Part shown: positions 5,584 to 48,409 of the stretch, in pieces
Layout: each line of letters opens with the position of its first letter
Numbering within the stretch: the stretch's first letter is position 1
NCBI GenBank assembly: GCA_026390595.1
Contig: JAPLFQ010000033.1
Span: 26,574 to 90,573 of the forward strand
Reading direction: 5' to 3'
From: Ignavibacteriales bacterium
GTDB lineage: Bacteria; Bacteroidota; Ignavibacteria; UBA10030
DNA: 64,000 nucleotides
Position numbers and translations under genes: made by a program
Notes under the pieces: generated by a model
Databases searched by the model: none
What the model was told of the DNA's origin: nothing
What the model saw: only the letters and a program-made list of their open reading frames with translations

Positions 5584-5590
5584 GCATGGT

Positions 5591-6439
5591 ATGAACTCAA
5601 GCAGAAACATACTGAAAGATCTCCTGGTCCGTTGGGGCCTTCTCAAGACGAAGCTCTCCGAGGAAGATTTCAAGCAGGTCCTCGAGGCGAGTACGATCAG
5701 CGGAGCGATCGACAAGGCCGAGCACGAACTTATCAAGAGCATTCTCGAGTTCACTGATACGACCGTCAAAGAGATCATGGTGCCCCGGCCTGATATCGTT
5801 GCCCTTGATATCTCGATGCCCCGCGAGGTGCTCGTCAGAAAGGTCATTGATGAGGGATACTCACGTCTTCCCGTGTACCGGGATAACATCGACCACATCA
5901 TTGGAATAATCTACAGCAAAGACCTCCTCAGTTTGCTGGAACACCGAGATCTCATCCTCTTGCAGGATATTATACGGCCCGTGTTCTTCGTCCCCGAGTC
6001 GAAGAAGATCAGCCAGTTGTTGCGTGAATTCCAGCAGCGGAAGGCTCACCTCGCAATTGTGACAGACGAGAATGGCGGGACGGAAGGCCTCGTCACCATG
6101 GAAGATATTGTGGAGGAGATCGTAGGAGAAATACACGACGAGTACGACGAAGTCGGAAAGGTAACGGAGCCGGCGAAGGATGGTTCGGTCATCGTGGACG
6201 CACGCCTGAGCGTAAGCGACATCAACAGGCAATTCGCTTTTGAGCTTCCGGAGTCTCCTGAATACGAGACCCTGGCGGGACTGATCCAGAAAGTACTTGG
6301 ACGGCTCCCTGAAATGGGGGAGAGCACCACCATCAAGGATCTACATTTCACGATTCTTTCGAAAACTGCCCGGCGTATCAGGCAGGTGCGGATCGAGCGT
6401 TTGACGAGTGGTTCCTCATCCGGGGTGCCGAAGGCGTGA
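5591..6439 (+). CDS. CBS-pair + CorC/HlyC transporter-associated domain protein (soluble CorC-like)
   Basis: Two CBS motifs followed by a CorC_HlyC C-terminal domain. No DUF21 membrane segment. Sits between trpD and trpC and overlaps the trpC start by 4 nt. Confidence 0.8.
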   Translation: MNSSRNILKDLLVRWGLLKTKLSEEDFKQVLEASTISGAIDKAEHELIKSILEFTDTTVKEIMVPRPDIVALDISMPREVLVRKVIDEGYSRLPVYRDNIDHIIGIIYSKDLLSLLEHRDLILLQDIIRPVFFVPESKKISQLLREFQQRKAHLAIVTDENGGTEGLVTMEDIVEEIVGEIHDEYDEVGKVTEPAKDGSVIVDARLSVSDINRQFAFELPESPEYETLAGLIQKVLGRLPEMGESTTIKDLHFTILSKTARRIRQVRIERLTSGSSSGVPKA

Positions 6440-7212
6440 CCATCCTCGAGACGATTCTTGAAGAGAAGCGAAAGGAAGTCTCCGAATCGGAAAGGGGGAT
6501 TGACCGCGCGAGGATAGCCGCAATGGCTCGCGAATCCGAACGCCCAAGACAATTCAAGAAATCGTTGCAGCAAGTTCCTTTTGCCCTGATCGCTGAGATA
6601 AAAAAGGCTTCCCCGTCAAAAGGAACACTGCTCGAAGATTTCGACCATCGGATATTGGCAACCGAGTTTCAGTCGGGAGGTGCTGCTGCTCTCTCAGTTC
6701 TCACGGACGAGAAGTATTTTCAAGGTCATCCGTCGTACATCGCTGATGTGAAGAAAGTTGTCCAGATCCCCGTCCTCCGGAAAGATTTCATCGTGGACGA
6801 GTATCAGGTTTTTGAATCAAGGGCCATCGGGGCCGATGCAATCCTGCTTATTGTCAGGGCGCTTCCATACGCAACCCTGCGGGCGCTGTATGAACTGGCG
6901 ATGTCGCTGGATATGGATGTGCTGATGGAAACGCACACGGAGGAGGACATCGAGACCGCCAACTCCATCGGTGCGGAGATAATCGGGATCAACAATCGTG
7001 ATCTCGGATCCTTCGAGGTGAACATTTCCACATCCCTCGCTTTGTATCATCACGTCCACAGCAAGGCGATCGCCGTGAGTGAAAGCGGAATCTCCTCGCG
7101 TGCAGATATTCAGGCGCTGGAAGCGGCCGGGTTTCGGGCTGCGTTGGTTGGAGAGGGGATCGTGACGCGACCTGATCGTGTGGCTGCTGTTCAGCAACTC
7201 CTGATGAGGTGA
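6436..7212 (+). CDS. trpC: Indole-3-glycerol phosphate synthase
   Basis: TrpC-like sequence throughout (ILEEKRKEV ... IAEIKKASPSKG ... GINNRDL). GTG start overlapping the upstream stop. Confidence 0.9.
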   Translation: MTILETILEEKRKEVSESERGIDRARIAAMARESERPRQFKKSLQQVPFALIAEIKKASPSKGTLLEDFDHRILATEFQSGGAAALSVLTDEKYFQGHPSYIADVKKVVQIPVLRKDFIVDEYQVFESRAIGADAILLIVRALPYATLRALYELAMSLDMDVLMETHTEEDIETANSIGAEIIGINNRDLGSFEVNISTSLALYHHVHSKAIAVSESGISSRADIQALEAAGFRAALVGEGIVTRPDRVAAVQQLLMR

Positions 7213-21500: not shown

Positions 21501-21938
21501 GGTTCCCCCGGAAAAGCCTTTGAATATCGGATGTTGACCGAAAGCTCCGAAACCGCGGGTATCCGGATGTCCTTCGGCCCACGACTTTTCTTCCCACAGG
21601 CCGGAGACACAGATGTTCGGCCTGATTGATTCGAGGCCAAGATCCACAACGTATTGTGCAGAGGCCAGGGAAAGGAGCAGTCCCCGTCCTTTCGAGAGAA
21701 ATGCCCGGATGGATCTGATCGTGCTGTCGTTTGTTGCAATCTCCGGCAGTTCAAGCGACTCGTCGAAGTGCCACCATGCAAGATCGAAGTTCAGGAGTGA
21801 GCGAGGATTCTTATCCAGGGCTGAGAAGAGAACTTTCTCTGCTCGAAATGTCTTGAGCCTCGACACGAATGACCAGGCGGAATGTTCCTCCTGGTTGAGT
21901 GTATGAGGGTCAACGATGAGAAACGCGATCTTCTTCAA
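18561..21938 (-). CDS. Large (1125 aa) cytoplasmic six-hairpin glycosidase-like protein (GDE_C / amylo-alpha-1,6-glucosidase-like core) with extra N- and C-terminal domains
   Basis: Central region carries motifs typical of (alpha/alpha)6 GDE_C/GH63-type enzymes (GRDSVWTGLA; GYHYGSIWPLFTGW). No signal peptide. The N-terminal ~300 aa (MKKIAFLIVD...) resembles a ThuA/GATase1-like fold. Family assignment is by motif only. Confidence 0.5.
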   Translation of the reverse strand: MKKIAFLIVDPHTLNQEEHSAWSFVSRLKTFRAEKVLFSALDKNPRSLLNFDLAWWHFDESLELPEIATNDSTIRSIRAFLSKGRGLLLSLASAQYVVDLGLESIRPNICVSGLWEEKSWAEGHPDTRGFGAFGQHPIFKGFSGGTFTSAPDIGRRYTAAYYEDQLPAAGRVVAVEKLYIKLDEQRRNVIEHSLDAGRIVSIGSHFYFSDSEQRFRRQLEHFASNCFSYLSTPTARKSEKVNERIYWDFSLPTVAEFSHRSKPLSVTSHKLPTRSDELVIHRDFAAPDLTEQFFDLSGRRVLIMGGERGGISEIWCHPVRILDNLKIQFRVGKALPQWSHELSPVVTICPESLTRRYNLNDATIEETLFADLLKPCGAIHYSVRSRKTVQIVLSARIDLRTMWPLSDRAIGSRRFAWDEAIHAGIITDASGQSSSILGSSRKPTDHLIGQYSEIVLEGDRLKGLPTESSAVALGFRVSLNSGARQCTIAFAGSGQSMQESIQSYRSVVQRPGPSLGRQRSRLRSVLRSSVRFATPSEQVNNAYRWAIAGLDKFVVEAPLLGRSFVAGYGLSSEGWNGGHTISGRPGYAWYFGRDSVWTGLAALACGEHEIVRDVLEFLGNYQDIDGKVLHELTTSGYAHYDAADSTPLYLVLMGRYVRATGDREFAASEFSRLIKAIEYCYSTDTDNDHLIENANVGHGWVEGGQLFPSHAEHYLNACWAEALLQSSFMAELLSERRLGRKWNEKAELVRTVLKREFWNPRTGFYNFSKCRDGSFVEEKTVLPSVGMYFKCTEHDKAQHSLAEYSGDNFSSDWGVRIVGKDNRFFNPTGYHYGSIWPLFTGWTSLAEFTNLRPLQGYMHLLSNALLYDQFSAGNMEEVLHGEVFRPVGVCPHQAWSQSMVIQPLIEGLLGLETDVIHKTVHMSPYFPPDWREASVKNIRLGDHRMDLDLYRKEKETVFVISLRRYSNKSRPSANYSLSFRPFFSLGTFIERFTIGSTMHNFAVLVDDYRALPTVQLQLGRKTVVRVEHKQGLALIPAVPHFQHGQKSKGVRVVNESWRNKSYVLTLEGKPGEDSIIEVLDRSRTARSVEGARVLAHDGDHLILAVPFEGDQSAGSYVRKDVVVNT

Positions 21939-24796
21939 TGCAATTCTACCTGCATCATGTAGTTTCGTTCGAACAGTTCATTCCAAACCCAGAGATCCGT
22001 CTGGGTCTGCACTCCGAAACGGAGACTGAGCCTCTTCCCCCTTGCCAACTGTAACCCGTATCGATCGTTTCTGGGGATTCTCAGGGTGAGACGATTACGG
22101 TAAATCGTGTTGCCGGATCGGTCGAGTTTGACCGAGACCACGCTGAGTCCCGTCGATCGCAGGATGTCCCGTCGATCTTTCGGGGTATTTACCCAGTCAG
22201 AACAATCGCGAAGATAGTAATCGGCCACCTTCGCAGAATCTCCGTTATTGAGCACGCGAATTTGGAAATTGTCAAAGCCGTGGAACCAACCATCGTTGTT
22301 GGCATCGATCTGAACGAGCAGGTTTGCCGGTTGTGCAGTGAGAGCAGAGAGATAGAGGGCGGAATCGGTCCAGGCGAGATAAAATTGGGCATCCATCAAG
22401 CTGGTATGAATCGCCCCGAAGGGACAAGACTCGAGCTCGGTCACACTCTTGATTCGCTGAATTGCGGGATTCATGGGGTAGAGGGGCTCAGGGTCAACTT
22501 TGTCAAGTATTCCGTCGCTATCCGTGTCCTTCTTTGTAAGGGAGGATGATCGCGAAGATCCCATCATCACTTCTTCAAGATCTGACAAACCATCATCATC
22601 GGAGTCGCTCGAAGCAGGGTCGCTCCCCAGACGTTTCTCGTCGAATGGGAGCGTCCGGTCGTCATCTGGCACCCCATCTCTGTCGGCATCAAGCGTTGCA
22701 TACAGCTTTCCAAATTTCAGAGTAAGCCAACAGGTCCTGTCTGCGTTTCTGATGATCTTTGCATTGAAATCGAAGTCTTCACCGAACCGTCCCGGCATTT
22801 TCCATGGCTGATCAGCGTGGTAGTACTCTGGAAACCCTGACATCTCCATCAGGGCGTCAATCTGATGGTGAAACTCATGCGTGATCAACCAGTCCTGACG
22901 GCTGAAGCGATCCTGGAACGGGTTGCTTGTATATCCGGCCGTCTTGCCATACTTCCATGGTGCCGGTACGCCGTACGTGCCGCCGCCGACAGCCTGCCTG
23001 ATTACAACGGTGTCCTTTCTTGTTGAATCGCGTAGTGCGCTTGCTCGACGAGATGGATAGTTGAACCAGGCATAGGGACAGACCAGTCCACAATAGTCGT
23101 CGGGGTTCTTTCCATAGAAGCGAGCCGCCTTCTCGAAGTCGTGCGTTACGCGCTCGTTTGGCGATAACCAATATGGATCAGTGTCTCCGACTTCGTGCAA
23201 CCACAAAGTGTCTTCAACGACGTACATGTCGAAATCCAGAACTACCTTACAGCCTGAGTTTCGAAAGTAGAACTCGCTGTTGAATGCGGTTGCCTGTCTG
23301 AGATACTCCATATCAGCAGAATCCAGAGTCCTTCCAGCGGGGACTCCGGGAAAGTGAATCTGAGGGTACTTATCCCTGTAGCTGATCGTGCGGTACACTA
23401 TACACATCACTGGCAGACGTGTCAGTGATGTCATTCTTGGATCGGCGGGGGGAGTTGAGAAGCGGAACTGCTTCGAAGAGGAATACTTCCCGGGTACTGT
23501 CTTCAGGGCAGGACCAAATCTGTAGCTGTACCGCGAAAGTGGACTGAGTTTGGACAGAGAAACAGATCGCTGATTGTGATCATTGACCGCAGCATCGGTG
23601 CGCCAAGATTCTCCATCTCGTGCCACGTCCAGCCAGGCGGGACCAGAGAGGTTTGTCGTCCATGAAATCTGACAACTTCCCAGATTCCTGTCGGTGATTG
23701 CCGATGGCTGTGCCGGAGGATCATCATTCAAAAAGACCAGTTTGTCGTAGTCAGCTACGACGAGGGTGTTCCTGCCGAAGACAGCAATACCGCGAGGGGC
23801 CTTGAATCCCCCGATGACCGCAGCATCAATAGTGTTTTCAAGATGCCCGCTTGAGTTGAACACGAAAATGACTCTCGCGCCCGGATCGGCCGCAAAGAGT
23901 TTTCCGGAGTGTGAGGCAAGTGAGGTTGGAGAAACGAGCCGCTCTGAGATGGAATCGACGAGTGCTCCGGATGAGTCTGAAACCAGTATCCGCCTGCCGA
24001 GTATGGCAAATGTCTTTCCGTCGAGTCCAATCTGCTTTGGCATCTCTGGAGGTGTCTTCATCGGCTCGGCTGACAGCAGTGAGCCTTCTGCATCGATCCG
24101 AAGCAATTGTTTCAACTCGGGGTGGTAGACTTCGAGAGTCGATCCACGCTCACGGACGTAGGCAAGATGTGCGAAGGAAACCTTATCACGTTTTCCCGGT
24201 ATTCGGACGATCGATGGCGGTCCGCTTGCGGAAACGCGAACTGATTTGAACTCAGACAATCCGTCGGAGGATTCAAGTCCTATGTACCCGGATACGAAAA
24301 CGAGATTGGTATCGACGCCGACGATTTCTCCGTCGATGAAAACCTTGTAACGGCTATGTACGGGGTCGACGTCGATTCGAAGAGTTGTCCAGTCGGATGG
24401 TATCTTCGGAGAGTCAAAAGTGCTGGTGGCTGTGAATTCCCCTGCAGCATTGAAGTACCCGGCAAGAAAACTCTTCTCGTCGAATCGAACCATGTGCGAA
24501 AGCGCTTTTGAGGACCGATCGTCAAGGCTGAAATAGAGACCAGCACGAATGCCCCTGAGGGTTGCTTCGATCGAGAATGGCTGGTCCGCAAACGCATAGA
24601 ACGAAGACGAAAGCAAATCGTCGTAATCCCTCGAATTGATCTGAAGACAATTCCCTTTGGTGTGCCAGTCACCTGTCGCAGCCTTCCATTGACGCCCGAG
24701 ATCAACGCGTTGGAAATCGTCCTGGAACCAGACCGTCTGCGCAGACAGAAGGGAACTGGAAAATGCCAGAAACAAGATTATGGCGATCTGTCTCAT
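21935..24796 (-). CDS. Secreted multidomain protein (~953 aa): LamG/DUF1080-like, NHL-like beta-propeller, FN3-like, HExxH region, thrombospondin type-3 Ca-binding repeats, CBM9/DOMON-like C-terminus
   Basis: Signal peptide MRQIAIILFLAFSSSLLSAQT (start taken at 24796, the track ORF extends to 24844). HEFHH motif. Three DxDxDGxxD repeats (DADRDGVPDDD, DSDDDGLSDLEE, DTDSDGILD). ATGA overlap with the downstream 1125-aa gene. Confidence 0.5.
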   Translation of the reverse strand: MRQIAIILFLAFSSSLLSAQTVWFQDDFQRVDLGRQWKAATGDWHTKGNCLQINSRDYDDLLSSSFYAFADQPFSIEATLRGIRAGLYFSLDDRSSKALSHMVRFDEKSFLAGYFNAAGEFTATSTFDSPKIPSDWTTLRIDVDPVHSRYKVFIDGEIVGVDTNLVFVSGYIGLESSDGLSEFKSVRVSASGPPSIVRIPGKRDKVSFAHLAYVRERGSTLEVYHPELKQLLRIDAEGSLLSAEPMKTPPEMPKQIGLDGKTFAILGRRILVSDSSGALVDSISERLVSPTSLASHSGKLFAADPGARVIFVFNSSGHLENTIDAAVIGGFKAPRGIAVFGRNTLVVADYDKLVFLNDDPPAQPSAITDRNLGSCQISWTTNLSGPAWLDVARDGESWRTDAAVNDHNQRSVSLSKLSPLSRYSYRFGPALKTVPGKYSSSKQFRFSTPPADPRMTSLTRLPVMCIVYRTISYRDKYPQIHFPGVPAGRTLDSADMEYLRQATAFNSEFYFRNSGCKVVLDFDMYVVEDTLWLHEVGDTDPYWLSPNERVTHDFEKAARFYGKNPDDYCGLVCPYAWFNYPSRRASALRDSTRKDTVVIRQAVGGGTYGVPAPWKYGKTAGYTSNPFQDRFSRQDWLITHEFHHQIDALMEMSGFPEYYHADQPWKMPGRFGEDFDFNAKIIRNADRTCWLTLKFGKLYATLDADRDGVPDDDRTLPFDEKRLGSDPASSDSDDDGLSDLEEVMMGSSRSSSLTKKDTDSDGILDKVDPEPLYPMNPAIQRIKSVTELESCPFGAIHTSLMDAQFYLAWTDSALYLSALTAQPANLLVQIDANNDGWFHGFDNFQIRVLNNGDSAKVADYYLRDCSDWVNTPKDRRDILRSTGLSVVSVKLDRSGNTIYRNRLTLRIPRNDRYGLQLARGKRLSLRFGVQTQTDLWVWNELFERNYMMQVELH

Positions 24797-24890
24797 TTGA
24801 TGTTTCTTTGCTGAGAGTTCGTCGTCAACACCCGGGATATGCATAACGTCTTGAGATCATCTGATTGGGTTCTGCAACAACTGCACAATC

Positions 24891-26258: not shown

Positions 26259-28511
26259 CTATATCTGTATTTGGATAGCCTTGCCAATGACACTTTCGGC
26301 ATGATGTTCGCCATCGAGCCAAACCGTGAATCGTGATCTCCGGACGTCCACCCGGAGATATCTGCCTCGCACCAGGACATTGTCAACAGTAACGGAGTCG
26401 AGGTTGAATGGGAATGGATCGATGAGAACAGAAAACTCTTCCGGTCGTATTCCACACACATACTTCAGGATGAGGTCGTTTACCCAGGAATGCTGGTAGT
26501 CATCAATGCCGCGGTAGATACTGGGCGTTCCTGATTCGGGATTGTAGTGCTCGAAGCAGTTCGGGCGCCGGGGATCTCCGTCGAAGAACATCAATCTAAC
26601 GTACTTCGTCATGAACTCAGCCGCCTTCTTGCGCAGTCCTTTGTCTGAGAATGCGATCGCCGCGGCGGCGAGGACTTCTGCTATGTGGCTGTTCGTCATC
26701 GGCCAGACCCGCCCGTTCCACGGACAGTTCATGCGCTTGCCTTTCCAGGTGGGAGAGGCTGAAAAGAACTCATCATCCGCACTGGAGGAGGGAACGGGGT
26801 AGGGCGTCCAGAATTCTTTCTTGTTTAGAAGATGACGCTTGAGTCCGGGGAGATGACTCCTGTCTACGATGTCGGTGAAGTATGGATAGAAACACGTGGC
26901 GGCCTTTACCAGGGTCCGATTTCCAGAGGCAGGATCGACATCAAAAAACATCTCCTGCTCGGAGTCCCACATTCTCTCGAGTACAGCCGTCTTGATCTTC
27001 CCGGCTTCGATTCTCCATAGCTCGCTTTCGTCGGTTCTGCCAAGTGTCTCGGCAACGGCCGACAACGCCCGTTTGAGCTCGTACAGATAGACGGTAACAT
27101 CGACTCCCTTGAGTCTGAATGCTTCGCCCCAATGTTCCTCGTCGGCCCGTGGATTGACCGCCGTATACCTGTGCATGTATTCCTGGCCCGTCTCATAATG
27201 ATTCTCGATGTCGTACAGTCCGCTGATCTCTTCGTCGCGTTCTTTGTCGAAATAGCCGGCGTACTTCTTCAGCCCTTCGTACACCTGCCCCAGGTAATCC
27301 GCGGAAGGATGCATGGCGTGAAGCTGAAGCAAGGCATTTCCCCAGTTCGCGTGGTAGAACATTTCCTGCCGGTAGTGGTTCATATCGATGTAGCCACGGA
27401 ACCCGCCATCATCGCGTTGGTTGTCGATAAATGTCAGAAGGCTTCCGCGGGCGAGCTCAGGATCGTGCATCCAGCGGTTTTCCAGGATATGGCATTGAGC
27501 ACTGTACGAAATGGGAGCGCGAAAATAGCCGATCCCCTCACAGACAAAAGGACGTTTGTAGTTTCCATCATTGCCGTACTGGGTGTTAAGTTTGAGTCCG
27601 TACCATCGATACCAGTAGTAGCGAGTCAAGAACTCGTCCGAGGAATTAAAATGGGGGACAGAGGCGAAGTGATCGTTCCAGCTGATTCTGCTCAGTTCGG
27701 CCGGATTGTTCTGGCGGAGAGCCGCACGTACGTTGCCATAGGTCTCATCGGACGAGGGGGAAGCCGCGAAGGCTATTGGTATTTCAGCTTCCATTCCTGG
27801 TTTGAGCGTGATCTCTGTGTGAAGTCCTGCATAGATGAGCCCCTCCTGTTCCGATCCCGTAATCTCGCTGGTGTTCTGCAATCTCCCTTCGTGAAACGTC
27901 TCGAACCAGGGAGTCAGAGCCCAATGAGGCTGGACAGCAGTCCGCTCGCTGAGACTGACGGAATAGGATTGGTTCGATGCACGCATTGCAAGCGCGCAGG
28001 CAATTTCAACGTGCGGTGCCACCGAGGGACGTACGAATTTGGTGAACGCAATTCCGTCACGACCCCGCTCCACGTCGGTTATCCAAGCCGATGATTTGGA
28101 TGGGACGATTTCCTGAATGGTCCATGCCACGAGGTGAAGGCGGAGTGTATTGCGTGAGCGGTTTTTCAATGTGACGACACTGAGCGCTACATCGTTGGGA
28201 AGAAGGGATTTTGTTTCCAGCACCTGAACATGCCGCGCATCTCCTTTGAGCGTACAATCGTATTCCTGGGTCATGAAAGCCGGATTCCAGGTTCGTCTGC
28301 AAAATGTAAGTGGGGACTCCCGTCCCGCGTCATCGAGAATCGCCCAAGTGAACAGAGGTTTGATCTCATAGTTATAGTAGTGCGCTTCATCCCAGAATCC
28401 GGGGAAATCAAGAAAGAGAGGGAACGTGGGAGCCCATAGCAGGCGATTTCCGCCGCCGAGGTACCATTTGTCGTTTCGCTCAAGATAACGGAGCAGGTCG
28501 ATTTTCTTCAT
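26259..28511 (-). CDS. Six-hairpin (alpha/alpha)6 glycoside hydrolase/phosphorylase-like protein, 750 aa (GH63/GH37/GDE-like clan)
   Basis: N-terminal beta-sandwich plus C-terminal helical barrel. Motifs FYHANWGNALL and NCPWNGRVWP (NGxxWP type). No signal peptide. Family not resolvable by eye. Confidence 0.55.
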   Translation of the reverse strand: MKKIDLLRYLERNDKWYLGGGNRLLWAPTFPLFLDFPGFWDEAHYYNYEIKPLFTWAILDDAGRESPLTFCRRTWNPAFMTQEYDCTLKGDARHVQVLETKSLLPNDVALSVVTLKNRSRNTLRLHLVAWTIQEIVPSKSSAWITDVERGRDGIAFTKFVRPSVAPHVEIACALAMRASNQSYSVSLSERTAVQPHWALTPWFETFHEGRLQNTSEITGSEQEGLIYAGLHTEITLKPGMEAEIPIAFAASPSSDETYGNVRAALRQNNPAELSRISWNDHFASVPHFNSSDEFLTRYYWYRWYGLKLNTQYGNDGNYKRPFVCEGIGYFRAPISYSAQCHILENRWMHDPELARGSLLTFIDNQRDDGGFRGYIDMNHYRQEMFYHANWGNALLQLHAMHPSADYLGQVYEGLKKYAGYFDKERDEEISGLYDIENHYETGQEYMHRYTAVNPRADEEHWGEAFRLKGVDVTVYLYELKRALSAVAETLGRTDESELWRIEAGKIKTAVLERMWDSEQEMFFDVDPASGNRTLVKAATCFYPYFTDIVDRSHLPGLKRHLLNKKEFWTPYPVPSSSADDEFFSASPTWKGKRMNCPWNGRVWPMTNSHIAEVLAAAAIAFSDKGLRKKAAEFMTKYVRLMFFDGDPRRPNCFEHYNPESGTPSIYRGIDDYQHSWVNDLILKYVCGIRPEEFSVLIDPFPFNLDSVTVDNVLVRGRYLRVDVRRSRFTVWLDGEHHAESVIGKAIQIQI

Positions 28512-28542: not shown

Positions 28543-29367
28543 TCATCCCTTCAAACCGGTCATGGTGATCCCTTTGACGAAGTACTTCTGTGCCGCAATG
28601 AACACCACAACGACGGGGAGCATAACAACTACGGCTGCGGCCATCTGATGTGGCCAGTCGGTTGTGTACAGGTTACTGAAATTAGCGATTCCGACTTCGA
28701 CGGTCCTCATGTCGGTCCGGTTCGTGACGATCAGCGGCCACAGAAAGTCTTTCCAGCTCCCCATGAAGGCGAAAATTGCAAGCGTCGCAAGAGCGGGCTT
28801 AGACAGAGGAAGGATCACCCGGAGGAAGATCGTGAGTTCCGAGGCGCCATCGACGCGCGCTGCATCTTCGATATCCCTTGGAATTGTCAGAAAGAACTGG
28901 CGCAGAAGAAATATCCCCCACACGCTTGAGACTGTGGGAGTGAACAGCGCCCAGTAGGTGTTCATCCAACCGAACGTGTTGATGAGGAGAAATGCCGGAA
29001 TGATTGTGACCATCGCCGGTATCATCATGGTGCTCAGGTAGAGGGCGAAGATTCTGTCTCGCCATCGGAAACGGAGCCGCGCAAAAGCGTATGCCGCCAT
29101 CGAGCAAAACGTGAGCTGCCCGATCACGGAAGCAGCAGCAACGATGAAAGAGTTCAGGAAGAATCGCCCGAACGGTTGGAGCGTCATTGCCTCTCCGTAA
29201 TTCGACCACTTCAACACGGAGGGGACAAACCGGGGCGGGAATTGATACACTTCCAATTCGCTCATGAGCGAAGTACTGAGCATCCACAGAAAAGGGAGGA
29301 GCATGGAGAGCGCGAGCAGAACCAGGCCGCCATAAATCAAAAGTCGGTTCAAACGCTTCATCGGCAC
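28543..29367 (-). CDS. Carbohydrate ABC transporter permease (MalG/UgpE-like)
   Basis: 6 TM helices and the EAA-like loop (IEDAARVDGASELTIFLRVILPLSKPAL). Confidence 0.85.
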   Translation of the reverse strand: MPMKRLNRLLIYGGLVLLALSMLLPFLWMLSTSLMSELEVYQFPPRFVPSVLKWSNYGEAMTLQPFGRFFLNSFIVAAASVIGQLTFCSMAAYAFARLRFRWRDRIFALYLSTMMIPAMVTIIPAFLLINTFGWMNTYWALFTPTVSSVWGIFLLRQFFLTIPRDIEDAARVDGASELTIFLRVILPLSKPALATLAIFAFMGSWKDFLWPLIVTNRTDMRTVEVGIANFSNLYTTDWPHQMAAAVVVMLPVVVVFIAAQKYFVKGITMTGLKG

Positions 29368-29377
29368 AGTAACCTGA

Positions 29378-30280
29378 CTATTTCACTGGATTGATTTGTT
29401 CCCACACGTGTGGATCTTCATGGCCCAAACGCCAAACGGAGATGCCTCTGAAATGGTATTTCTTCACCAGGGCGAGTTTGGCGGCCATCGACCGTGCGTC
29501 TTCCAGGTAAATGTATTCGTTGAGGAACTCATTCGGGTAGACCGCATACGATACCTTCTCGCGATCATCCCACTTCCACGTTGCATTGTTACGCTCAGCG
29601 AGTGCCATTGCTTCGGCATAGTCGAGGCTTTTTCCCCAGGCGTGGGCTGCATTGTTCTGATATTCGGGCTGCCAGACTCTGGAGTAGAAGGGGATTCCGA
29701 GAGAGATCTTCCCGGGCGGTACCCCTTTCATCACGAATTGAATGATTGCTTCCATCCATGGTACACCCGCCACCGGCCCCGGGGTCGTCCGATGCGTGTG
29801 CTGTTCATAGGTCATAAGCGAAATGAAGTCGCCAATCTCCGCCAGGGCCTTGTAGTCGAATACGCCTCGCCAGTACTCATAGATCCACTTGTGGAATTCA
29901 GTCGGACCGATGTCCTCAGATGACCTCGGAACGACGGCGACACTGATTGCGTAGCCGTTCGAGTGGAGGGCTGCTGCCGCCTGACGGTAGAAGTCTGTAA
30001 ACGCGTCCTTGTCCGAAATATGGATGTTCTCAAAATCGAACTGAAGGCCGTAGTATTTGTTCTCTCGGCATACGCGAACCATGTTGGAGACACCCCGAGC
30101 CCGGGCAGCGGAATCATGGAGAAGCGCATGAAACGAAGGCTGATCGAAGCCAGGGTTCACCACCAGGGGCATCACCTTGACATTGTTTTTTGAGGAGAGC
30201 TCGAGGATCCTCCGATCAACGGAGCCCCACATGTTTCCGTGCTCATCCAACACCGCAATGATACGACTCCTATATCGCAT
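29378..30280 (-). CDS. GH18-like glycosyl hydrolase family protein (YaaH/YdhD-type catalytic domain), cytoplasmic
   Basis: YGLQFDFENI (variant GH18 D-x-E catalytic motif) and ISLGIPFYSRVW (GH18 LGxPxYGR-like). No signal peptide. Confidence 0.45.
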   Translation of the reverse strand: MRYRSRIIAVLDEHGNMWGSVDRRILELSSKNNVKVMPLVVNPGFDQPSFHALLHDSAARARGVSNMVRVCRENKYYGLQFDFENIHISDKDAFTDFYRQAAAALHSNGYAISVAVVPRSSEDIGPTEFHKWIYEYWRGVFDYKALAEIGDFISLMTYEQHTHRTTPGPVAGVPWMEAIIQFVMKGVPPGKISLGIPFYSRVWQPEYQNNAAHAWGKSLDYAEAMALAERNNATWKWDDREKVSYAVYPNEFLNEYIYLEDARSMAAKLALVKKYHFRGISVWRLGHEDPHVWEQINPVK

Positions 30281-30309: not shown

Positions 30310-31419
30310 TTAGTCGCCGAAGCAGATGCCGAGGTCTCTTGCTGTAAGCATCGTGTCGCAGTCAAGCGGGACTTTCTTCATGCGCCTCGTCGCCTGCTCG
30401 AGCGGAACATAGCGAACTGTCGGCGGATCGAGCGCAACCATGACCCCGGACCTTCCCTCCTCGAGAGCGCGCACGGCAGCAGCCCCAAATCTGAGCGAAA
30501 TAAGGCGGTCAAATGTAGTAGGGGACCCCCCTCGCAGGAGGTGTCCGAGCACCACGCACCGCGATTCGCGTCCCGTGAGTTCCTGAAGTTCAGCGGAAAC
30601 CCGCTCACCGGCTCCTCCAAGGCGTTCCGCCCGGCCAAGCTCTTTGGAAACAACTGAAACGGTTCCACCCTTTGGCTTTGCGCCCTCGGCAACAACAACA
30701 ATAGCGAAGTTGCGTCCGCGTGAATATCGGTCTTGAATCTTGTCAGCGACCTTCTTGAGGTCGTAAGGGATTTCCGGTATCAAGATTGCATCCGCAGTGC
30801 CCGAAACGCCGCTGTTCAGAGCGATCCATCCGGCGTAGCGTCCCATTACTTCGACAACCATGACTCGTTGATGTGCCTCAGCCGTCGAGTGCAGACGGTC
30901 AAGGCACATCGTTGCAAATCCAACTGCGGTGTCGAACCCGAATGTGATGACAGTCTTTTCGAGATCATTGTCGATTGTTTTCGGTACTCCGACAACTCGC
31001 AGCCCTTTCTGTGCGAGCGCGTTGGAAATCGTGAGAGATCCGTCTCCGCCGATAGAGATGAGGGCGTCAATTTTTTCTTTCTTGAATATTTTCACCAGCT
31101 CGCCCGTCCGATCTTTCTCATACATTTTCCCATCCCTGCCTTTGACGGGATACTTCATCGGATTTCCTTTGTTTGTCGTTCCAAGGATTGTGCCGCCAAG
31201 GTGCGTGATGCCCCGGACCCGGTCTCTTGTCAGTGGGATGAGCCCTCCATCGGGATATTGTTCAGGGAGTAGAAGTCCGTTGTAGCCGTCTCTGATGCCG
31301 ATGCATTCCCAGCCACGGTCGATAGCAGTGATCACCGCTGCACGAATGACTGCATTGAGCCCGGGAGCGTCTCCGCCTCCGGTATTGATTGCAATGCGTT
31401 TGATAGGCTTGAGTGCCAT
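30310..31419 (-). CDS. pfkA: 6-phosphofructokinase (ATP-type motif GGDGS)
   Basis: RIAINTGGGDAPGLNAVIRA ... ISIGGDGSL ... PKTIDNDL. PFK family signatures. Confidence 0.9.
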   Translation of the reverse strand: MALKPIKRIAINTGGGDAPGLNAVIRAAVITAIDRGWECIGIRDGYNGLLLPEQYPDGGLIPLTRDRVRGITHLGGTILGTTNKGNPMKYPVKGRDGKMYEKDRTGELVKIFKKEKIDALISIGGDGSLTISNALAQKGLRVVGVPKTIDNDLEKTVITFGFDTAVGFATMCLDRLHSTAEAHQRVMVVEVMGRYAGWIALNSGVSGTADAILIPEIPYDLKKVADKIQDRYSRGRNFAIVVVAEGAKPKGGTVSVVSKELGRAERLGGAGERVSAELQELTGRESRCVVLGHLLRGGSPTTFDRLISLRFGAAAVRALEEGRSGVMVALDPPTVRYVPLEQATRRMKKVPLDCDTMLTARDLGICFGD

Positions 31420-31440: not shown

Positions 31441-33837
31441 TCAACTGTATTCAGCTTCACGTCCCAAAATCTTGAATTGAATCCATGTCGCTATCATGAT
31501 GATGAGAAAGAGCACCCAGGACATTGCAGAGGCATAACCCATCCTCAGCTCTTCCCAAGCCGATTGATAGATGTGGTACACGATGACGTCTGTGCTTCCC
31601 ACCGGGCCGCCGCCAGTCATGACATAAATCGAAGTAAAGACCTGAAACGATGCGATGATTGAGGTGACAAGGATAAAGAACGTCGTGGGCTTGAGCAGTG
31701 GAAGCGTTATCCGCCAGAAACGCTGCCAGCTGTTTGCGCCGTCGATCCGGGCTGCGTCATGGAATTCTTCCGGTATGCCCTGAAGTCCGGCAAGGAAAAC
31801 GACCATCTGGTATCCAAGGCTGAGCCACACGGAAAATATGATCACCGAAACCATGGCCGTGCTGGACGAATTCAGCCACTGCACAGGACCGAGTCCCAAA
31901 AATCCGAGTACGAAGTTGGCCACGCCGAACGTGGGATGATAGATCCACATCCAGACGAGGGCAATTGCGACGAATGAAGTGACGCTTGGAAGGAAATAGA
32001 GCGCCCGGAGAAACGCGACTCCTTTGAGCCGCTTGTTCATCATCAGCGCCACGACGAGAGAAATGGCCATTGCGATGGGTACATTCAATGTATATAGTGC
32101 CGTGTTCTTCAGCGCATTCCAGAATGTCGTGTCCGACGCGAGTTCCCTGAAGTTCTCCAGGCCGACGAATGGTTTGTCCGGCACTACGACATCCCACCGG
32201 TGCAGGCTAAGGTATGCGGCAAATGCAATCGGCGTGAAGATAAAAACGGTCAGGTGGAGCAGGGAAGGGGCAAGGAAGCCAAGCGCTGTGCGTGTCGAGG
32301 CGCGCGTGTGACCGCGGGATTTCAGATACATCGCTCCGCATGCACTGAAAACTATGAATGTCACAACGATAAGGAACCGAAGTATGTCGGAGTGCTCTCG
32401 AATAGGCTTGAATTCAAACGCCTGGTGCTTTCGTATGTTCGCGAGTTGGGCATCGATTGTTGCTGCGTAGCGGGTCATTGTTTCATGAATCGGCTTGCCG
32501 TTCACCATAACTTCATCGACAGCATCCTGCAATGTCCATTCAACCTCGCTGAAGCGTTCGATAATAGAGCCCCACGGCTGACGGCACAATGGTATCTCGT
32601 TCGCAAAGGGGCGTTCGAGTCCAAGCAAGTCAGCCGCGACAACCTCCTCTGCCACATTGCGTACGGAAGGGATCTCAAGTTGTTTTGAGGCCCGAATGCG
32701 GTTTGCTTTCTCGCCGGCCATGAACGCTGCGAGAATAGCCGCTTCGCGGGGGTGTTTCGAACTGACAGGAACGCACCAGCCCGATTCGTACATGACGTTC
32801 ACTGAGTGTCCTCCGGGATAGTTCGGCATCGGAACCACTCCCACGCGGAGAGTCCCGTGCTCAATCTGCCGGAGTATCCGTGGCAGCCGCCAGTGTCCGT
32901 CAACCATCATTGCGATCTTCCCGTTCATGAAGAGCTGAACGTTCATTCCAGTTTTTTCTGATTGTATCCAGCTCCCGGTGTTCGGAGCTACCTTGTGAAC
33001 AGTACGCAGATCAATCAGATAGGAAAGGGCCGATTCGGTCGCAGGGGAGTTCAGATAGCCCGAGGCGGTCGTTCCAGACGGGTCGATGACGTCGCCCCCG
33101 GTCCTCCAAACCCACGGAATCCAGAAATAGAAATAGTTTGTGAAGGAAGTTCCATACTGATCTGGTGTCCCATCACCATCGAAATCAACGGTCGTCTTCC
33201 TGGCGAGGGCGAGATACTCATTCCACGTCCACGAACTCGCAGGATAGGGGAGATTGGCACCGTCAAAGATGTCTTTGTTGAAATAGACCATCAGTGGAGT
33301 GAAGCCCTTCGGAAATGCGAAGAGGGCTTCTCCTTTTCGCGCGATGGCGAGAACATTGGGATACCATCGGGCTGTGTCGATTCGAAGCTGTTGCACAAAC
33401 GGGTTCAGATCGAGAAGGATCTTTTTGTTCGTGAAGGTTGGAATAAGCTTGGAATCCAGCAGAAACACGTCAGAGGGATCATCTGCAGCGAGCGCAGTCA
33501 AAATCTTTTCTTCGTACTGTCGCCCCGGGTTGGGTTCGTAGAGAACGTCGATGGCGGGATAGAGCCGCTTGAATTCTGCGAGAGCCAGCTGATCAAGCGG
33601 AACCTCGTCCAGATCAGCCCAATCTGTGAGTCTCAGCGTAATCCGAGTCTGGGCATTGAGAGGGTGGAAGCACGCGACGGCGAGAATGAAGAAGCAGAAG
33701 AAGGTGAGTAATGTTTCAGCCAGTCGCTGTTTTGTCCCGCGGGAGAACACAGATATTTTCTTTGGCTGATGGTGAGTGTGAAGCAGACAATTGCTGTTAC
33801 AACGCAGTCCGCGACCCGGGCACTGCAGCCCGCGCAC
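31441..33837 (-). CDS. Fused ABC importer component: N-terminal extracytoplasmic sugar-binding protein (MalE/UgpB-like) joined to a C-terminal MalF/UgpA-like permease (798 aa)
   Basis: N-terminal ~450 aa is a family-1 SBP. A linking TM helix follows, then a 6-TM permease with the EAA loop (EFHDAARIDGANSWQRFWRITLPLLKPT). One continuous ORF. N-terminal signal-anchor. Start uncertain. Confidence 0.7.
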   Translation of the reverse strand: MRGLQCPGRGLRCNSNCLLHTHHQPKKISVFSRGTKQRLAETLLTFFCFFILAVACFHPLNAQTRITLRLTDWADLDEVPLDQLALAEFKRLYPAIDVLYEPNPGRQYEEKILTALAADDPSDVFLLDSKLIPTFTNKKILLDLNPFVQQLRIDTARWYPNVLAIARKGEALFAFPKGFTPLMVYFNKDIFDGANLPYPASSWTWNEYLALARKTTVDFDGDGTPDQYGTSFTNYFYFWIPWVWRTGGDVIDPSGTTASGYLNSPATESALSYLIDLRTVHKVAPNTGSWIQSEKTGMNVQLFMNGKIAMMVDGHWRLPRILRQIEHGTLRVGVVPMPNYPGGHSVNVMYESGWCVPVSSKHPREAAILAAFMAGEKANRIRASKQLEIPSVRNVAEEVVAADLLGLERPFANEIPLCRQPWGSIIERFSEVEWTLQDAVDEVMVNGKPIHETMTRYAATIDAQLANIRKHQAFEFKPIREHSDILRFLIVVTFIVFSACGAMYLKSRGHTRASTRTALGFLAPSLLHLTVFIFTPIAFAAYLSLHRWDVVVPDKPFVGLENFRELASDTTFWNALKNTALYTLNVPIAMAISLVVALMMNKRLKGVAFLRALYFLPSVTSFVAIALVWMWIYHPTFGVANFVLGFLGLGPVQWLNSSSTAMVSVIIFSVWLSLGYQMVVFLAGLQGIPEEFHDAARIDGANSWQRFWRITLPLLKPTTFFILVTSIIASFQVFTSIYVMTGGGPVGSTDVIVYHIYQSAWEELRMGYASAMSWVLFLIIMIATWIQFKILGREAEYS

Positions 33838-33879: not shown

Positions 33880-35073
33880 TCATCGGGCAGAGAGAGCCTT
33901 GAATACTTCCCTCGTCGCATCTGCCGCCGTACGGATTTCGTCCAGTGAATTATAGAAGTGGGGAGCGAATCGGAGCTTCCCTCCGCGCAGGGAAATGTAG
34001 ATTTTTCTTCGTGTCAGTTCTTCGAAGGCTGCGGTGGGGTCGACTCCCGACGGCGGCGCGATCGTCATGATGCCTGAACGCTCATGAAGCGCTACAGGGG
34101 AATAGAGAGACACTCCATCCATACGGTGGAATTCTTCGAGAAGAGCTCCGGTCAAAGCCAGCACATGGGACTCGATGACCTGAGGTCCGACTTCGAGAAG
34201 CGTGCTCAGAGCCGCGTGCATTCCCCACATGCCGGGGATGTTGACGGTGCCTCCCTCGTAGCGGTTCGCCGTCGGTGTGAGGGCCTGCTCGAAATTAAAA
34301 AAGTCCCATGGGTTTTCGACTGAAAGCCAACCAAGATATTTTTGGTGTATCCTTGCCTGGAGTTCTTCGGTGACATAGAGAAAGCCGATTCCCTGCGGTC
34401 CCATTTGCCACTTTGCGGCCCCGGCTGCCATACCGTCGATTTTCATCGCCTGGACATCCACGGTAACCCCTCCAACGGCCTGCATGGCATCTACGACGAG
34501 CAGAATACCCCGGGCATGGCACACCTCGCCGAGTACGGCCAGATCCGCACGGTATCCGGATAGAAATTGAACGGCGCTGATGGCCAAAATACGCGTGCGA
34601 GGTCGCAGTGCTGCGTACACCGCCTCCGGCCTGATGGTTCCGTCAGGGCAATGGATGATATCAATTTCGACTCCCTGGCTCTTCAGGTGATAGTACGGAT
34701 AGACATTGGACGGAAATTCGAGGTCATTGAGAAGGATCCGGTCTCCCGGTTTCCAATCGAGGCCCGACGCGATAACATTGAGCGCATCAGACGTGTTGCC
34801 GGCGAAGGCGATACGGTCGATCGATTCTGCGTTGATCATTCGTTGAACACACTTCTTCGTTTCCTCGATCTGCTTGACGTCCTCCCAGTAGGTCTCGATC
34901 TTGCCGGAAGAACGATCCTGCAAATGTCCAACTTGAGCACGCAATACCCGTGTCGAGAGCGGACTGACGGCAGCGTGATTCAGATAGATCACTCCCTGCT
35001 CAGTGTGCGGAAATAACTGTCGGAATTGCTGAAGCGGTTCGAATGGAATGAGACGAGCTTGGGGAGAAGTCAC
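33880..35073 (-). CDS. Class V aminotransferase-fold PLP-dependent enzyme (cysteine desulfurase / SufS-CsdA-like family)
   Basis: 397 aa. Typical fold-type I class V layout with a candidate PLP lysine (AAKWQMGPQG). First gene of the minus-strand carbohydrate operon. Confidence 0.75.
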   Translation of the reverse strand: MTSPQARLIPFEPLQQFRQLFPHTEQGVIYLNHAAVSPLSTRVLRAQVGHLQDRSSGKIETYWEDVKQIEETKKCVQRMINAESIDRIAFAGNTSDALNVIASGLDWKPGDRILLNDLEFPSNVYPYYHLKSQGVEIDIIHCPDGTIRPEAVYAALRPRTRILAISAVQFLSGYRADLAVLGEVCHARGILLVVDAMQAVGGVTVDVQAMKIDGMAAGAAKWQMGPQGIGFLYVTEELQARIHQKYLGWLSVENPWDFFNFEQALTPTANRYEGGTVNIPGMWGMHAALSTLLEVGPQVIESHVLALTGALLEEFHRMDGVSLYSPVALHERSGIMTIAPPSGVDPTAAFEELTRRKIYISLRGGKLRFAPHFYNSLDEIRTAADATREVFKALSAR

Positions 35074-35464
35074 GAGTGGCCGGTGATGTTAGGAGACGAT
35101 TCGTTCTGGGCAAGTGTACTCAAAGAGACACGGAAAATCAAGGATTTCGGGGTTAAATGCCGGGTTGTTTTTGGGAGTCAGGATGGCTACCATAGGTTCG
35201 ACGCGCTTTCCCTTCCGGCTGTTCACCCACCCGTGGGTGGTGGATAGAAAGATGGCGTCGTGCGAAAATTCACTACGTCAACAGACTGGTATTCGTCCAA
35301 TCTCAGGCCGGCAATCGATCCAATTTGCACGCTGCTGCAATGCAGTTGGATAGGCAACATCTTCACTCACTCCTGCGGGCAGGGAATAGGTGATTGCTTC
35401 GACTTGAATCTGGAGACAATTTGCATAGATTTGCTTTCTGTAACCCACCGTGGCCGTTGCCCAC

Positions 35465-36382
35465 ATGACTACAAAGGTCAAACGCATGAAAGTGAAACCA
35501 ATTCTGCTGCTCGTTGTTCTCCTGAGCTGCTATTGTTACTCTGCGACTGTTTCCATTTCCGATTCCTCCTCACCCGTTGTCTTGATTCGCTGTGACGATC
35601 TCGGCATGTGTCACACGGTCAATCTGGCAGCAAAGCAGGTGCTGGAGACCGGCATGCCAGTCTCCTTTTCAGTTATGTTCGCCTGTCCGTGGTATCAGGA
35701 GGCGATTGACTTGCTTAGACGGTATCCGCATGCATCTGTCGGCATTCACCTCACACTCAATGCGGAGTGGAAGAACTACCGTTGGGGACCTGTATCAGGG
35801 AAGAGCGCTGTACCAAGCCTTGTTGACAGCCTTGGTTTCTTTTTCCCCTCGCGTGCAGCATTTTTTGCTCACCATCCACAATTGGGGGAAATTGAAACCG
35901 AATTGAGGGCACAGATCGAACGTGCGATGCATTGCGGGATACAAATAGACTACGTCGACTACCACATGGGAACGGCGGTTGATCGACCCGAATTACGGGC
36001 CCTGGTGGAATCTCTCGCGAAGCACTACGGTCTTGGCGTTTCCAGGTACTTCGGTGAAACGGATGTAGACGGAGTGTACAGCGCTCCGATTGCGAGCAAG
36101 GTCGATACACTCCTTGCCCGGACACGTTCACTGCCTCACACATCCATCAATCTGATGGTTTTTCATATCGGTCTCCAGACCCCGGAGATGGATGCCCTCG
36201 AGGATTTGAATTCATTCGGGCTTCGGGAAATGAGCAAACATCGGGAGGCAGAACTCAAATCCGTAACCTCAGCATCGTTCCGACAATTGGTCGAGTCACA
36301 GCACGTTCAGCTGACAACCTACCGGGACGTCATCAAAGCAACAGGATTGACCGGTATGAAACGCCCGGTACAGAAGGACTGA
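35465..36382 (+). CDS. YdjC/ChbG-family carbohydrate deacetylase-like protein with N-terminal signal peptide
   Basis: VLIRCDDLGMCHTVN (YdjC-family DDxG metal-binding N-motif). Hydrophobic N-terminus MTTKVKRMKVKPILLLVVLLSCYCYSA. Start chosen among three in-frame candidates (35450 GTG, 35465, 35486). Confidence 0.5.
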   Translation: MTTKVKRMKVKPILLLVVLLSCYCYSATVSISDSSSPVVLIRCDDLGMCHTVNLAAKQVLETGMPVSFSVMFACPWYQEAIDLLRRYPHASVGIHLTLNAEWKNYRWGPVSGKSAVPSLVDSLGFFFPSRAAFFAHHPQLGEIETELRAQIERAMHCGIQIDYVDYHMGTAVDRPELRALVESLAKHYGLGVSRYFGETDVDGVYSAPIASKVDTLLARTRSLPHTSINLMVFHIGLQTPEMDALEDLNSFGLREMSKHREAELKSVTSASFRQLVESQHVQLTTYRDVIKATGLTGMKRPVQKD

Positions 36383-47307: not shown

Positions 47308-48409
47308 ATGTTCGAAGATCTTAAAGACAAGTTGGCCGAGCAGCAGAAGCGACTCGCGTCGCTGAGGGGGTATCTTTGACCTCGACAGCAAGCTCGTCGA
47401 CATCGGGAAACTCCAGGCCAGAACGCACGAGCAGGATTTCTGGAATGATAACGTTTCCGCTCAAAAAATACTGCAAGAGATAAACTCGAAGAAGGAATGG
47501 GTGACCGGCTGGGAGAAGCTGAACGCACTTGCGCAGGATACGGGAACTCTCATCGAGCTCGCCGAGGAATCGAATGAGAAAGGGATGGGGGAAGAGATCA
47601 ATGCCGAACTCAAGAAGCTGGACACGGAAATTGAACGCCTCGAACTCAAGAACATGCTCGGTGGCGTCGACGATGCAAAAAACGCTATCCTTGTCATTCA
47701 CTCTGGAGCTGGCGGGACGGAATCTCAGGATTGGGCGGAAATGCTTCTGCGGATGTACACCCGATGGTGCGAACGAAGCGGATTCAAGGTAAGCCTCGCC
47801 GACATTCTTGAAGGAGAAGGTGCCGGGATCAAAAGCGCGACTGTGGAAGTCCTCGGCCAGTTCGCGTACGGATACCTCAAAGCGGAAAACGGAGTGCATC
47901 GGCTCGTGCGCATTTCTCCGTTCGACGCAAACGCGAGGAGACACACGTCATTTGCTTCGGTGTTTGTGTATCCCGAAATTGAGGACGACGTAGAAATTGA
48001 AATTAATGTCGTCGATCTTAGGATCGACACGTTTCGATCGGGTGGCAAAGGGGGACAGAACGTCAACAAAGTCGAGACTGCGGTTCGTATCACGCACCTT
48101 CCGTCGGGAATTGTCGTCGCGTGCCAGCAGGAACGGTCGCAGTTCCAGAACAAGGAACGCGCGATGAAAATGCTGAAGTCGAGGTTGTATCAGCTCAGGC
48201 GGGAAGAGGAGGAGGCGCGACTCAGCGCCATCGAAAGCACCAAGAAGAAGATAGAATGGGGAAGTCAGATCCGCTCGTATACGTTTCAACCTTATACGCT
48301 TGTGAAAGACCACAGGACCGGGGTTGAATCCAGCGATGTGCACGGAGTGATGGATGGGGAGATCGACGCATTCATTCGCAGCTATCTTCTCGAAGGGGCG
48401 AAAAAGTAG
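47308..48409 (+). CDS. prfB: Peptide chain release factor 2, expressed via programmed +1 ribosomal frameshift at CTT TGA C (47374-47380)
   Basis: Frame 0 reads [23 protein letters not shown], with an in-frame TGA at 47377. Shifting +1 after CTT gives [13 protein letters not shown]... and continues into the ORF ending at 48409 (SPF-type RF2 body, GGQ motif [25 protein letters not shown]). An SD-like AGGGGG lies 3 nt upstream of CTT. Confidence 0.85.
47365..47380 (+). other. RF2 autoregulatory recoding site: internal SD-like AGGGGG + slippery CUU + UGA C
   Basis: AGG GGG TAT CTT TGA C matches the canonical prfB frameshift cassette. Confidence 0.8.

Follow-up and report, generated by a model that had tools for sequence, protein, structure and literature searches.

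Does a single gene of an uncultured Ignavibacteriales bacterium encode both the periplasmic receptor and one of the membrane subunits of a sugar importer, or have two neighbouring genes been merged by an error in the assembly? The question is raised by a 64,000-nt stretch of DNA (hereafter, the window). A sequence-only reading of this stretch proposed that one reading frame joins a solute-binding protein (SBP) of family 1 covalently to an ATP-binding cassette (ABC) permease, and that the partner permease is encoded separately. The fusion gene is a real, conserved single gene, in which the SBP and one of two membrane subunits are joined by one helix. This architecture is uncommon but already described, namely in the MalE-MalF fusion of Bdellovibrio bacteriovorus, and the window thus provides a further example of it and not a new kind of system. 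The lineage represented by the window is nevertheless distinct and well-populated; what sets it apart is its conserved tether and a permease core resembling UgpA/SugA.

In the list of open reading frames (ORFs), 31441..33837, on the (-) strand, is a single ORF of 798 aa with no interruption. Residue numbers below refer to the 769-aa protein that starts at 33750, unless they are marked as belonging to the 798-aa ORF that starts at 33837. The Pfam family SBP_bac_1 matches aa 81-379 of the 798-aa ORF (6.9e-33, 115 bits against a cutoff of 26), SBP_bac_8 also matches this ORF (1.9e-25), and BPD_transp_1 (PF00528) matches its aa 591-787 (5.7e-19, 69 bits against a gathering score of 26.4). Against the NCBIfam models, aa 521-797 of the 798-aa ORF align with full-length UgpA (1e-42), and the same region aligns end to end with GlcT and with the MalF core too, below the equivalog cutoffs. 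Given that the score for the UgpA equivalog NF007852 is 147 bits against a cutoff of 335, the permease is UgpA-like in fold and length, and is not a UgpA orthologue. Its EAA motif, DAARIDGANSWQRFWRITLP, fits the pattern EAA-x3-G-x9-I-x-LP and lies between core transmembrane helices (TM) 4 and 5. The best PDB match is AbnE for the SBP half (1.8e-26) and mycobacterial SugA for the permease half (7cad_A, 4.8e-34, aa 483-766), and the PDB sequence search returned no chain that spans both halves. In a structural comparison, the SBP fold of the fusion is complete. These results bear out that the N-terminal ~450 aa are a family-1 SBP and that a permease with an EAA loop follows in the same uninterrupted frame; the separate partner permease was likewise confirmed, by both Pfam and NCBIfam.

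The proposed span of 31441-33837 holds as an open frame, yet the gene itself is probably shorter. Given that the N-termini of homologues line up with the GTG at 33750, and that an identical protein at NCBI (P0001, labelled 'MAG: extracellular solute-binding protein [Ignavibacteriales bacterium]') has 769 aa, translation probably starts at this codon. The 29 codons at 33751-33837, counted from the first in-frame GTG (33837), have no match in most homologues and would remain untranslated. Gene-calling programs that choose the longest ORF make the fusion gene too long, as in P0002 (797 aa) and P0011 (832 aa).

Between the two halves, the hydropathy profile places the helix ILRFLIVVTFIVFSACGAM (TM0), whose Kyte-Doolittle (KD) value of 2.3 makes it the second strongest hydrophobic segment of the ORF. 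It is followed by a loop with four K/R and no D/E residues, and then by six more hydrophobic segments; in the 44 other fused representatives, the TM0-TM1 loop has a mean of 5.5 K/R versus 1.9 D/E. A first AlphaFold2 (AF2) model, built from 45 close sequences, was discarded, as its transmembrane domain (TMD) was unreliable, with a predicted local distance difference test score (pLDDT) below 50 in many segments. The results given here were obtained with a second model, built from 94 more diverse sequences, which presents a mean pLDDT of 85 and a predicted template modelling score (pTM) of 0.78. It contains TM0 as a helix at 454-477, with pLDDT of ~90, plus six further TM helices. Hydropathy, the positive-inside rule and the AF2 model together predict a six-helix permease core with a cytoplasmic N-terminus, so that the extra helix and the self-consistent topology of the sequence-only reading stand. 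The tether that precedes TM0, HQAFEFKPIREHSD, has a mean column identity of 0.69, on par with the domains, and across 45 relatives P449 is invariant and F447 near-invariant.

An SBP gene followed by that of permease 1 is the usual gene order in CUT1-type importers, and related unfused operons exist, both of which would be compatible with a frameshift or misassembly that merged two adjacent genes. However, a word-indexed protein search for the same fusion returned more than 120 protein clusters (64-100% identity, 727-832 aa), all of which contain both Pfam domains, and 48 loci were found in species-representative genomes, all of them metagenome-assembled genomes (MAGs) labelled Ignavibacteria, Bacteroidota or 'Chlorobiaceae'. 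The stop-to-stop fusion ORF is intact at every related locus with a complete contig (40+ independent MAG loci, from many samples), and a profile search adds fusions from Calditrichota (~50% identity) and Melioribacteraceae (61%). Since the single frame is kept throughout these clusters and independent loci, a frameshift or misassembly is excluded for practical purposes, and the probability we leave to an artefact is negligible. Furthermore, the junction carries a correctly oriented extra helix and a conserved tether, which would not be expected from the merging of two ordinary genes. Apparent 'insertions' of 700-1200 nt in the fusion genes of L015, L016, L021, L025, L029 and others, suggested by tblastn matches of 2.9-3.4 kb per ~740 residues, were rejected: these matches run on into the adjacent permease 2, and the fusion ORFs there are intact (755-757 aa).

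Among known fused importers, the architecture is matched by that of the maltose/maltodextrin transporter of B. bacteriovorus. In the work of Licht et al. (2019, Res Microbiol 170:1-12), as described in PMC6906923, MalE is fused to MalF, in a fixed 1:1 ratio, and the transporter was purified and assayed, with free MalE stimulating it further. From this description, the system resembles that of the window in that one polypeptide unites an SBP and a MalF-type permease by way of a membrane segment, while the MalG-type subunit is separate. The MalE domain of this system (PDB 6FFL), which is the only one of its domains that was compared, is a structural relative of the window SBP, although a remote one (19% identity; phmmer 5e-7 over a partial stretch). 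A further difference is that the window permease is most similar to the 6-TM UgpA/SugA permeases. Unlike the Bdellovibrio system, that of the window probably takes up a substrate other than maltodextrin, and, as the fusions examined have two or more origins, it is likely that both fusions arose independently.

The closest solved permease is found in the mycobacterial trehalose importer LpqY-SugABC (PDB 7CAD, 8JA7), with which the window shares a UgpA/UgpE-type heterodimeric TMD and a family-1 SBP. There, however, LpqY is a separate lipoprotein, SugA has neither TM0 nor a fused domain, and the ATPase SugC is part of LpqY-SugABC. The classical importers with a substrate-binding domain (SBD) fused to the TMD are OpuA (OpuABC) and GlnPQ of Lactococcus lactis, in Gram-positive hosts. 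As in the window, their receptor is tethered by a short linker and an anchoring TM (11 aa in OpuA), which yields a high local receptor concentration. They differ in belonging to other ABC families, and in having cluster-F SBDs, homodimeric TMDs and two or four SBDs per complex. With a family 1/MalE-like SBP and a TMD partner encoded by a different gene, the window system falls outside the OpuA/GlnPQ (OTCN/PAO) type. Moreover, the OpuA linker is reported as non-conserved, whereas the window tether is conserved.

The presence of a family-1 (SBP_bac_1) binding protein and of two different membrane subunits, i.e., the fusion and the product of 28543-29367, is that of a CUT1 importer. We consider it highly probable that the fusion is a single-polypeptide subunit of a CUT1-type (type I) importer, with a tethered SBP and a UgpA/SugA-like permease, which pairs with a separate permease and with an ATPase encoded outside the window. 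Under this reading, Sec export and probable cleavage of the signal peptide would leave the complete oligosaccharide-binding domain in the periplasm, held by the 14-residue tether and TM0 to the N-terminus of the 6-TM permease. The fusion would then pair with the UgpE/MalG-like permease and the ATPase, giving one covalently attached receptor per transporter, which would capture the sugar and, acting in cis, dock on the translocator to which it belongs. Once imported, the oligosaccharide may be cleaved in the cytoplasm by the co-transcribed hydrolase, which resembles glycoside hydrolase (GH) family GH63.

Several points weigh against this reading. The support for the fusion protein and its close relatives consists of sequence comparison and predicted models, and signal-peptide cleavage is deduced from a sequence pattern. 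The scanned window ORFs and the related operons examined yielded no MalK/MsiK/UgpC-type ATPase gene; a single ABC_tran gene was found in the window, which is of LolD/MacB type and lies next to FtsX permeases. CUT1 ATPases are frequently encoded at other sites and shared. The hints as to the substrate conflict: the relatives are of the AbnE, cycloalternan and trehalose type, whereas the neighbouring genes are GH63-like, GH116-like, GH18 and GH38. For the trees presented below, only neighbour joining (NJ) was used, and the direction of change was deduced by parsimony. Given that the relatives of the SBP and of the permease, as well as the GH63-like and GH116-like enzymes, point to it, the substrate is probably an alpha-linked di- or oligosaccharide, of the alpha-glucoside or alpha-mannoside type.

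Three other workings of the protein were weighed. In the sequence-only reading, the N-terminal segment was a signal anchor; if it did remain uncleaved, the SBP domain would have an anchor at each end. With a KD of 2.28, the segment is strongly hydrophobic, and some fusions from other phyla have long, anchor-like N-termini. Yet it also presents a basic n-region, a hydrophobic core and, in nearly all of 45 relatives, a conserved small-x-small site (AxA↓Q) right before a conserved Gln and the first beta-strand, and the weak conservation of aa 1-33 (0.26) is typical of signal peptides. Given this n-h-c layout and the conserved site, a cleaved Sec signal peptide is more likely than a signal anchor, and we regard anchoring at both ends as unlikely. 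A lipoprotein anchor was ruled out, as a conserved Cys and a lipobox are absent among the homologues.

Cleavage could instead occur at the other end of the domain, where a cut in the tether would free a periplasmic SBP from the precursor. The conserved tether could in principle be a recognition site for such a cut, but TM0 is oriented out-to-in and hence is not a signal-peptidase substrate, the operon has no conserved protease gene in the related loci compared, and the characterised fused importers OpuA, GlnPQ and Bdellovibrio MalE-MalF stay uncleaved; this makes processing at the tether very improbable. Somewhat less improbable, though still a small chance, is that the tethered SBP is not the sole or main receptor, with free SBPs from elsewhere delivering the substrate and the fused domain acting mainly as a scaffold or regulator. 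Speaking for it, the ATPase of B. bacteriovorus MalE-MalF is described in PMC6906923 as further stimulated by added soluble MalE, and the nearest permease relatives combine a non-SBP periplasmic extension with a free SBP. No second SBP was found in the 64-kb window. The reading with one tethered receptor acting in cis is the one retained here.

The wider distribution of such fusions was obtained from a HMMER search against 1.84 billion 50%-identity representatives, the top 150 of which were sorted by local BLAST on both halves. They comprise 45 SBP+permease fusions, 42 permeases with a different N-terminal extension of >200 aa (N-extended permeases), 48 plain permeases, 13 free SBPs and 2 unclassified proteins. 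Both Pfam domains are present in 46/46 members of alignment A2, which includes the query. Covalent SBP-TMD fusions are uncommon in CUT1 importers relative to unfused systems, as the sequence-only reading had it, but with at least 45 further clusters they are not rare in databases. Named members of the other fused clusters belong to Planctomycetota, Armatimonadota (Fimbriimonas) and Chlamydiota, and share the same layout of signal, SBP, one TM and 6-TM core. The literature consulted on CUT1 fusions in Ignavibacteria or Planctomycetes yielded nothing specific.

In each of its halves, the window protein resembles unfused genes more than it does these other fusions. Its permease has 53-63% identity to N-extended permeases versus 36-44% to other fusions, and its SBP has 40-47% identity to free SBPs versus 20-33% to other fusions. 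In the bootstrapped NJ tree of the permease core, 99/100 replicates recover a monophyletic query clade, its sister group includes N-extended permeases in 100/100, and the query clade plus the N-extended permeases exclude the large fused clade in 100/100. In the corresponding tree of the SBP domain, the query clade and nearby free SBPs exclude the fusions from other phyla in 98/100 replicates. Given that the trees of both halves indicate a separate origin of the fusions from other phyla, we conclude that at least two independent fusion events occurred among the fusions examined.

How the window clade acquired TM0 is suggested by its nearest relatives in all three components, the N-extended UgpA-like permeases whose operons encode a free SBP. 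At L052 (permease gene at 4629-6938) and L053 (1774-4083), the gene of a free SBP (424 aa) comes first, followed by that of the N-extended permease P0344 (769 aa) and then by permease 2. The sister free SBP is 47% identical to the window SBP domain over 430 aa and ends where the window tether begins; the identity is 62% for permease 2 and ~61% for the permease core. N-extended permeases have the last TM of their extension at the TM0 position, whereas plain permeases start just after it. Since the window clade nests among N-extended permeases whose operons keep a free SBP, TM0 is probably a remnant of such an extension. The fusion probably arose by an in-frame deletion, which would have started at the stop codon of the SBP gene and ended shortly ahead of the extension's last TM in the downstream permease gene, and would thereby have joined the free SBP to a helix that already had the needed out-to-in orientation.

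The 'sugar ABC permeases' with this extension (P0126, P0128, P0130, P0131, P0137, P0138, P0344 and others) differ from the window protein in that their SBP is a separate gene and that 270-600 aa with extra TMs and periplasmic parts precede the core. The predicted order of these parts is an N-terminal TM, a ~230-aa periplasmic part, a pair of TMs, another periplasmic part and one last TM. The extension matches no Pfam family above cutoff (weak sCache_3_3/CHASE4-like matches only) and no PDB sequence, and may be a receptor-docking or sensing module.

Taken together, and tentatively, these results may mean that CUT1 SBP-permease fusion arose repeatedly in diderm phyla, and that in the Ignavibacteria-Calditrichota clade it did so by the deletion of most of a large periplasmic permease extension and the splicing of the upstream free SBP onto its last TM, the tether suggesting an obligate cis 1:1 receptor. 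We hold this combined view to be possible, but not the likelier outcome. If true, the mechanism would be unlike that of Bdellovibrio MalE-MalF, which still responds to free MalE, the clade would be a natural minimal single-receptor heterodimeric type I importer, and the extension of the sister lineage would be pointed to as a receptor-docking module. With a fused receptor, the receptor:transporter ratio is fixed at 1:1 and the local receptor concentration is very high, and OpuA, GlnPQ and Bdellovibrio MalE-MalF have been valuable models for substrate hand-over to type I importers. To these, the window clade adds a well-populated diderm example that combines a single receptor and a heterodimeric TMD and whose tether is unusually conserved, and its identifiable unfused sister system would permit a direct comparison of free and tethered delivery. 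Public databases label such genes either 'extracellular solute-binding protein' or 'permease', each of which is half right. Most deserving of attention are the evolutionary path that led to the fusion and the extension found in the sister permeases.

The features of the fusion gene and of its operon are presented in Table 1.

Table 1. Features of the fusion gene and its downstream genes in the window.
Feature	Position	Strand	Basis or remark
Whole fusion gene	31441..33750	(-)	769 aa + stop; frame open up to 33837
Predicted cleavable Sec signal peptide, aa 1-33	33652..33750	(-)	predicted cut after LNA↓Q
Family-1 (oligosaccharide-type) solute-binding domain, aa 34-441	32428..33651	(-)	Pfam
Tether HQAFEFKPIREHSD, 14 aa, aa 442-455	32386..32427	(-)	column conservation
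Linker helix TM0, aa 456-476	32323..32385	(-)	hydropathy, AF2; predicted out-to-in
K/R-rich cytoplasmic loop TM0-TM1, aa 477-491	32278..32322	(-)	positive-inside rule
Six-TM UgpA/SugA/MalF-core-type permease, aa 492-769	31441..32277	(-)	Pfam, NCBIfam, SugA match, EAA, AF2
EAA loop, aa 665-684	31699-31758	(-)	DAARIDGANSWQRFWRITLP
6-phosphofructokinase (PFK), between the two permease genes	30310..31419	(-)	Pfam, NCBIfam; some lineages only
GH18-like gene, probably 5'-truncated	29378..30280	(-)	Pfam, orthologue comparison
Partner permease, UgpE/MalG type, own EAA loop	28543..29367	(-)	UgpE 1e-47, MalG 4e-30 (NCBIfam)
Cytoplasmic MGH1-like (GH63-like) glycoside hydrolase	26259..28511	(-)	most conserved enzyme partner of the transporter
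969-aa protein, signal-peptide-like N-terminus	21935-24844	(-)	no Pfam matches
GH116/GDE_C-like protein, 1125 aa	last of eight genes, down to 18561	(-)	Pfam

Eight (-) strand genes, from the fusion gene down to 18561, are spaced by -4 to 51 bp, and the intergenic gaps, of 10-51 bp, point to one operon. The order from the fusion gene onwards is PFK, GH18-like gene, UgpE/MalG-like permease, MGH1-like hydrolase, amino-acid permease, 969-aa secreted protein and GH116/GDE_C-like gene. In most of the complete related loci, the partner permease gene follows the fusion at a short distance downstream. Across related loci, the recurring core consists of the fusion, (PFK), (GH18), permease 2, (GH116-like) and the MGH1-like GH. 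More distant members keep the fusion and permease 2, with an MGH1-like GH, GH38 and LacI nearby in one case.

Both the window and L003-L007, L009, L010, L014, L022, L024, L028, L034, L038, L039 and L045 have the PFK gene directly downstream of the fusion, unlike other members. Where the locus is long enough, it sits between the two importer permease genes; such a position is unusual for a gene of central glycolysis. The GH18-like gene of the window has neither the signal peptide nor the ~60 N-terminal residues present in its L004, L005 and L009 orthologues. It is probably a 5'-truncated copy, judging from this comparison, and its product is possibly inactive or mislocalised. The gene of the 969-aa protein has a 4-nt overlap with the next GH gene, and in L024 the MGH1-like GH is followed by a homologue with 55% identity.

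On the other side of the fusion gene, a class-V aminotransferase gene (33880-35073, (-) strand) lies directly upstream, and a YdjC-like gene (carbohydrate deacetylase family; 35450-36382, (+) strand), with a signal-like N-terminus, lies upstream on the opposite strand; both positions are kept in the closest relatives. These two neighbours may hint at an amino-sugar-containing substrate.

Elsewhere in the window, prfB (release factor 2; 47308-48409, (+) strand) presents the classical +1 programmed frameshift site CTT TGA C at 47374-47380, preceded by the Shine-Dalgarno-like element AGGGGG, with the N-terminal 23 codons in another frame than the main ORF (47501-48409), which is a known phenomenon.

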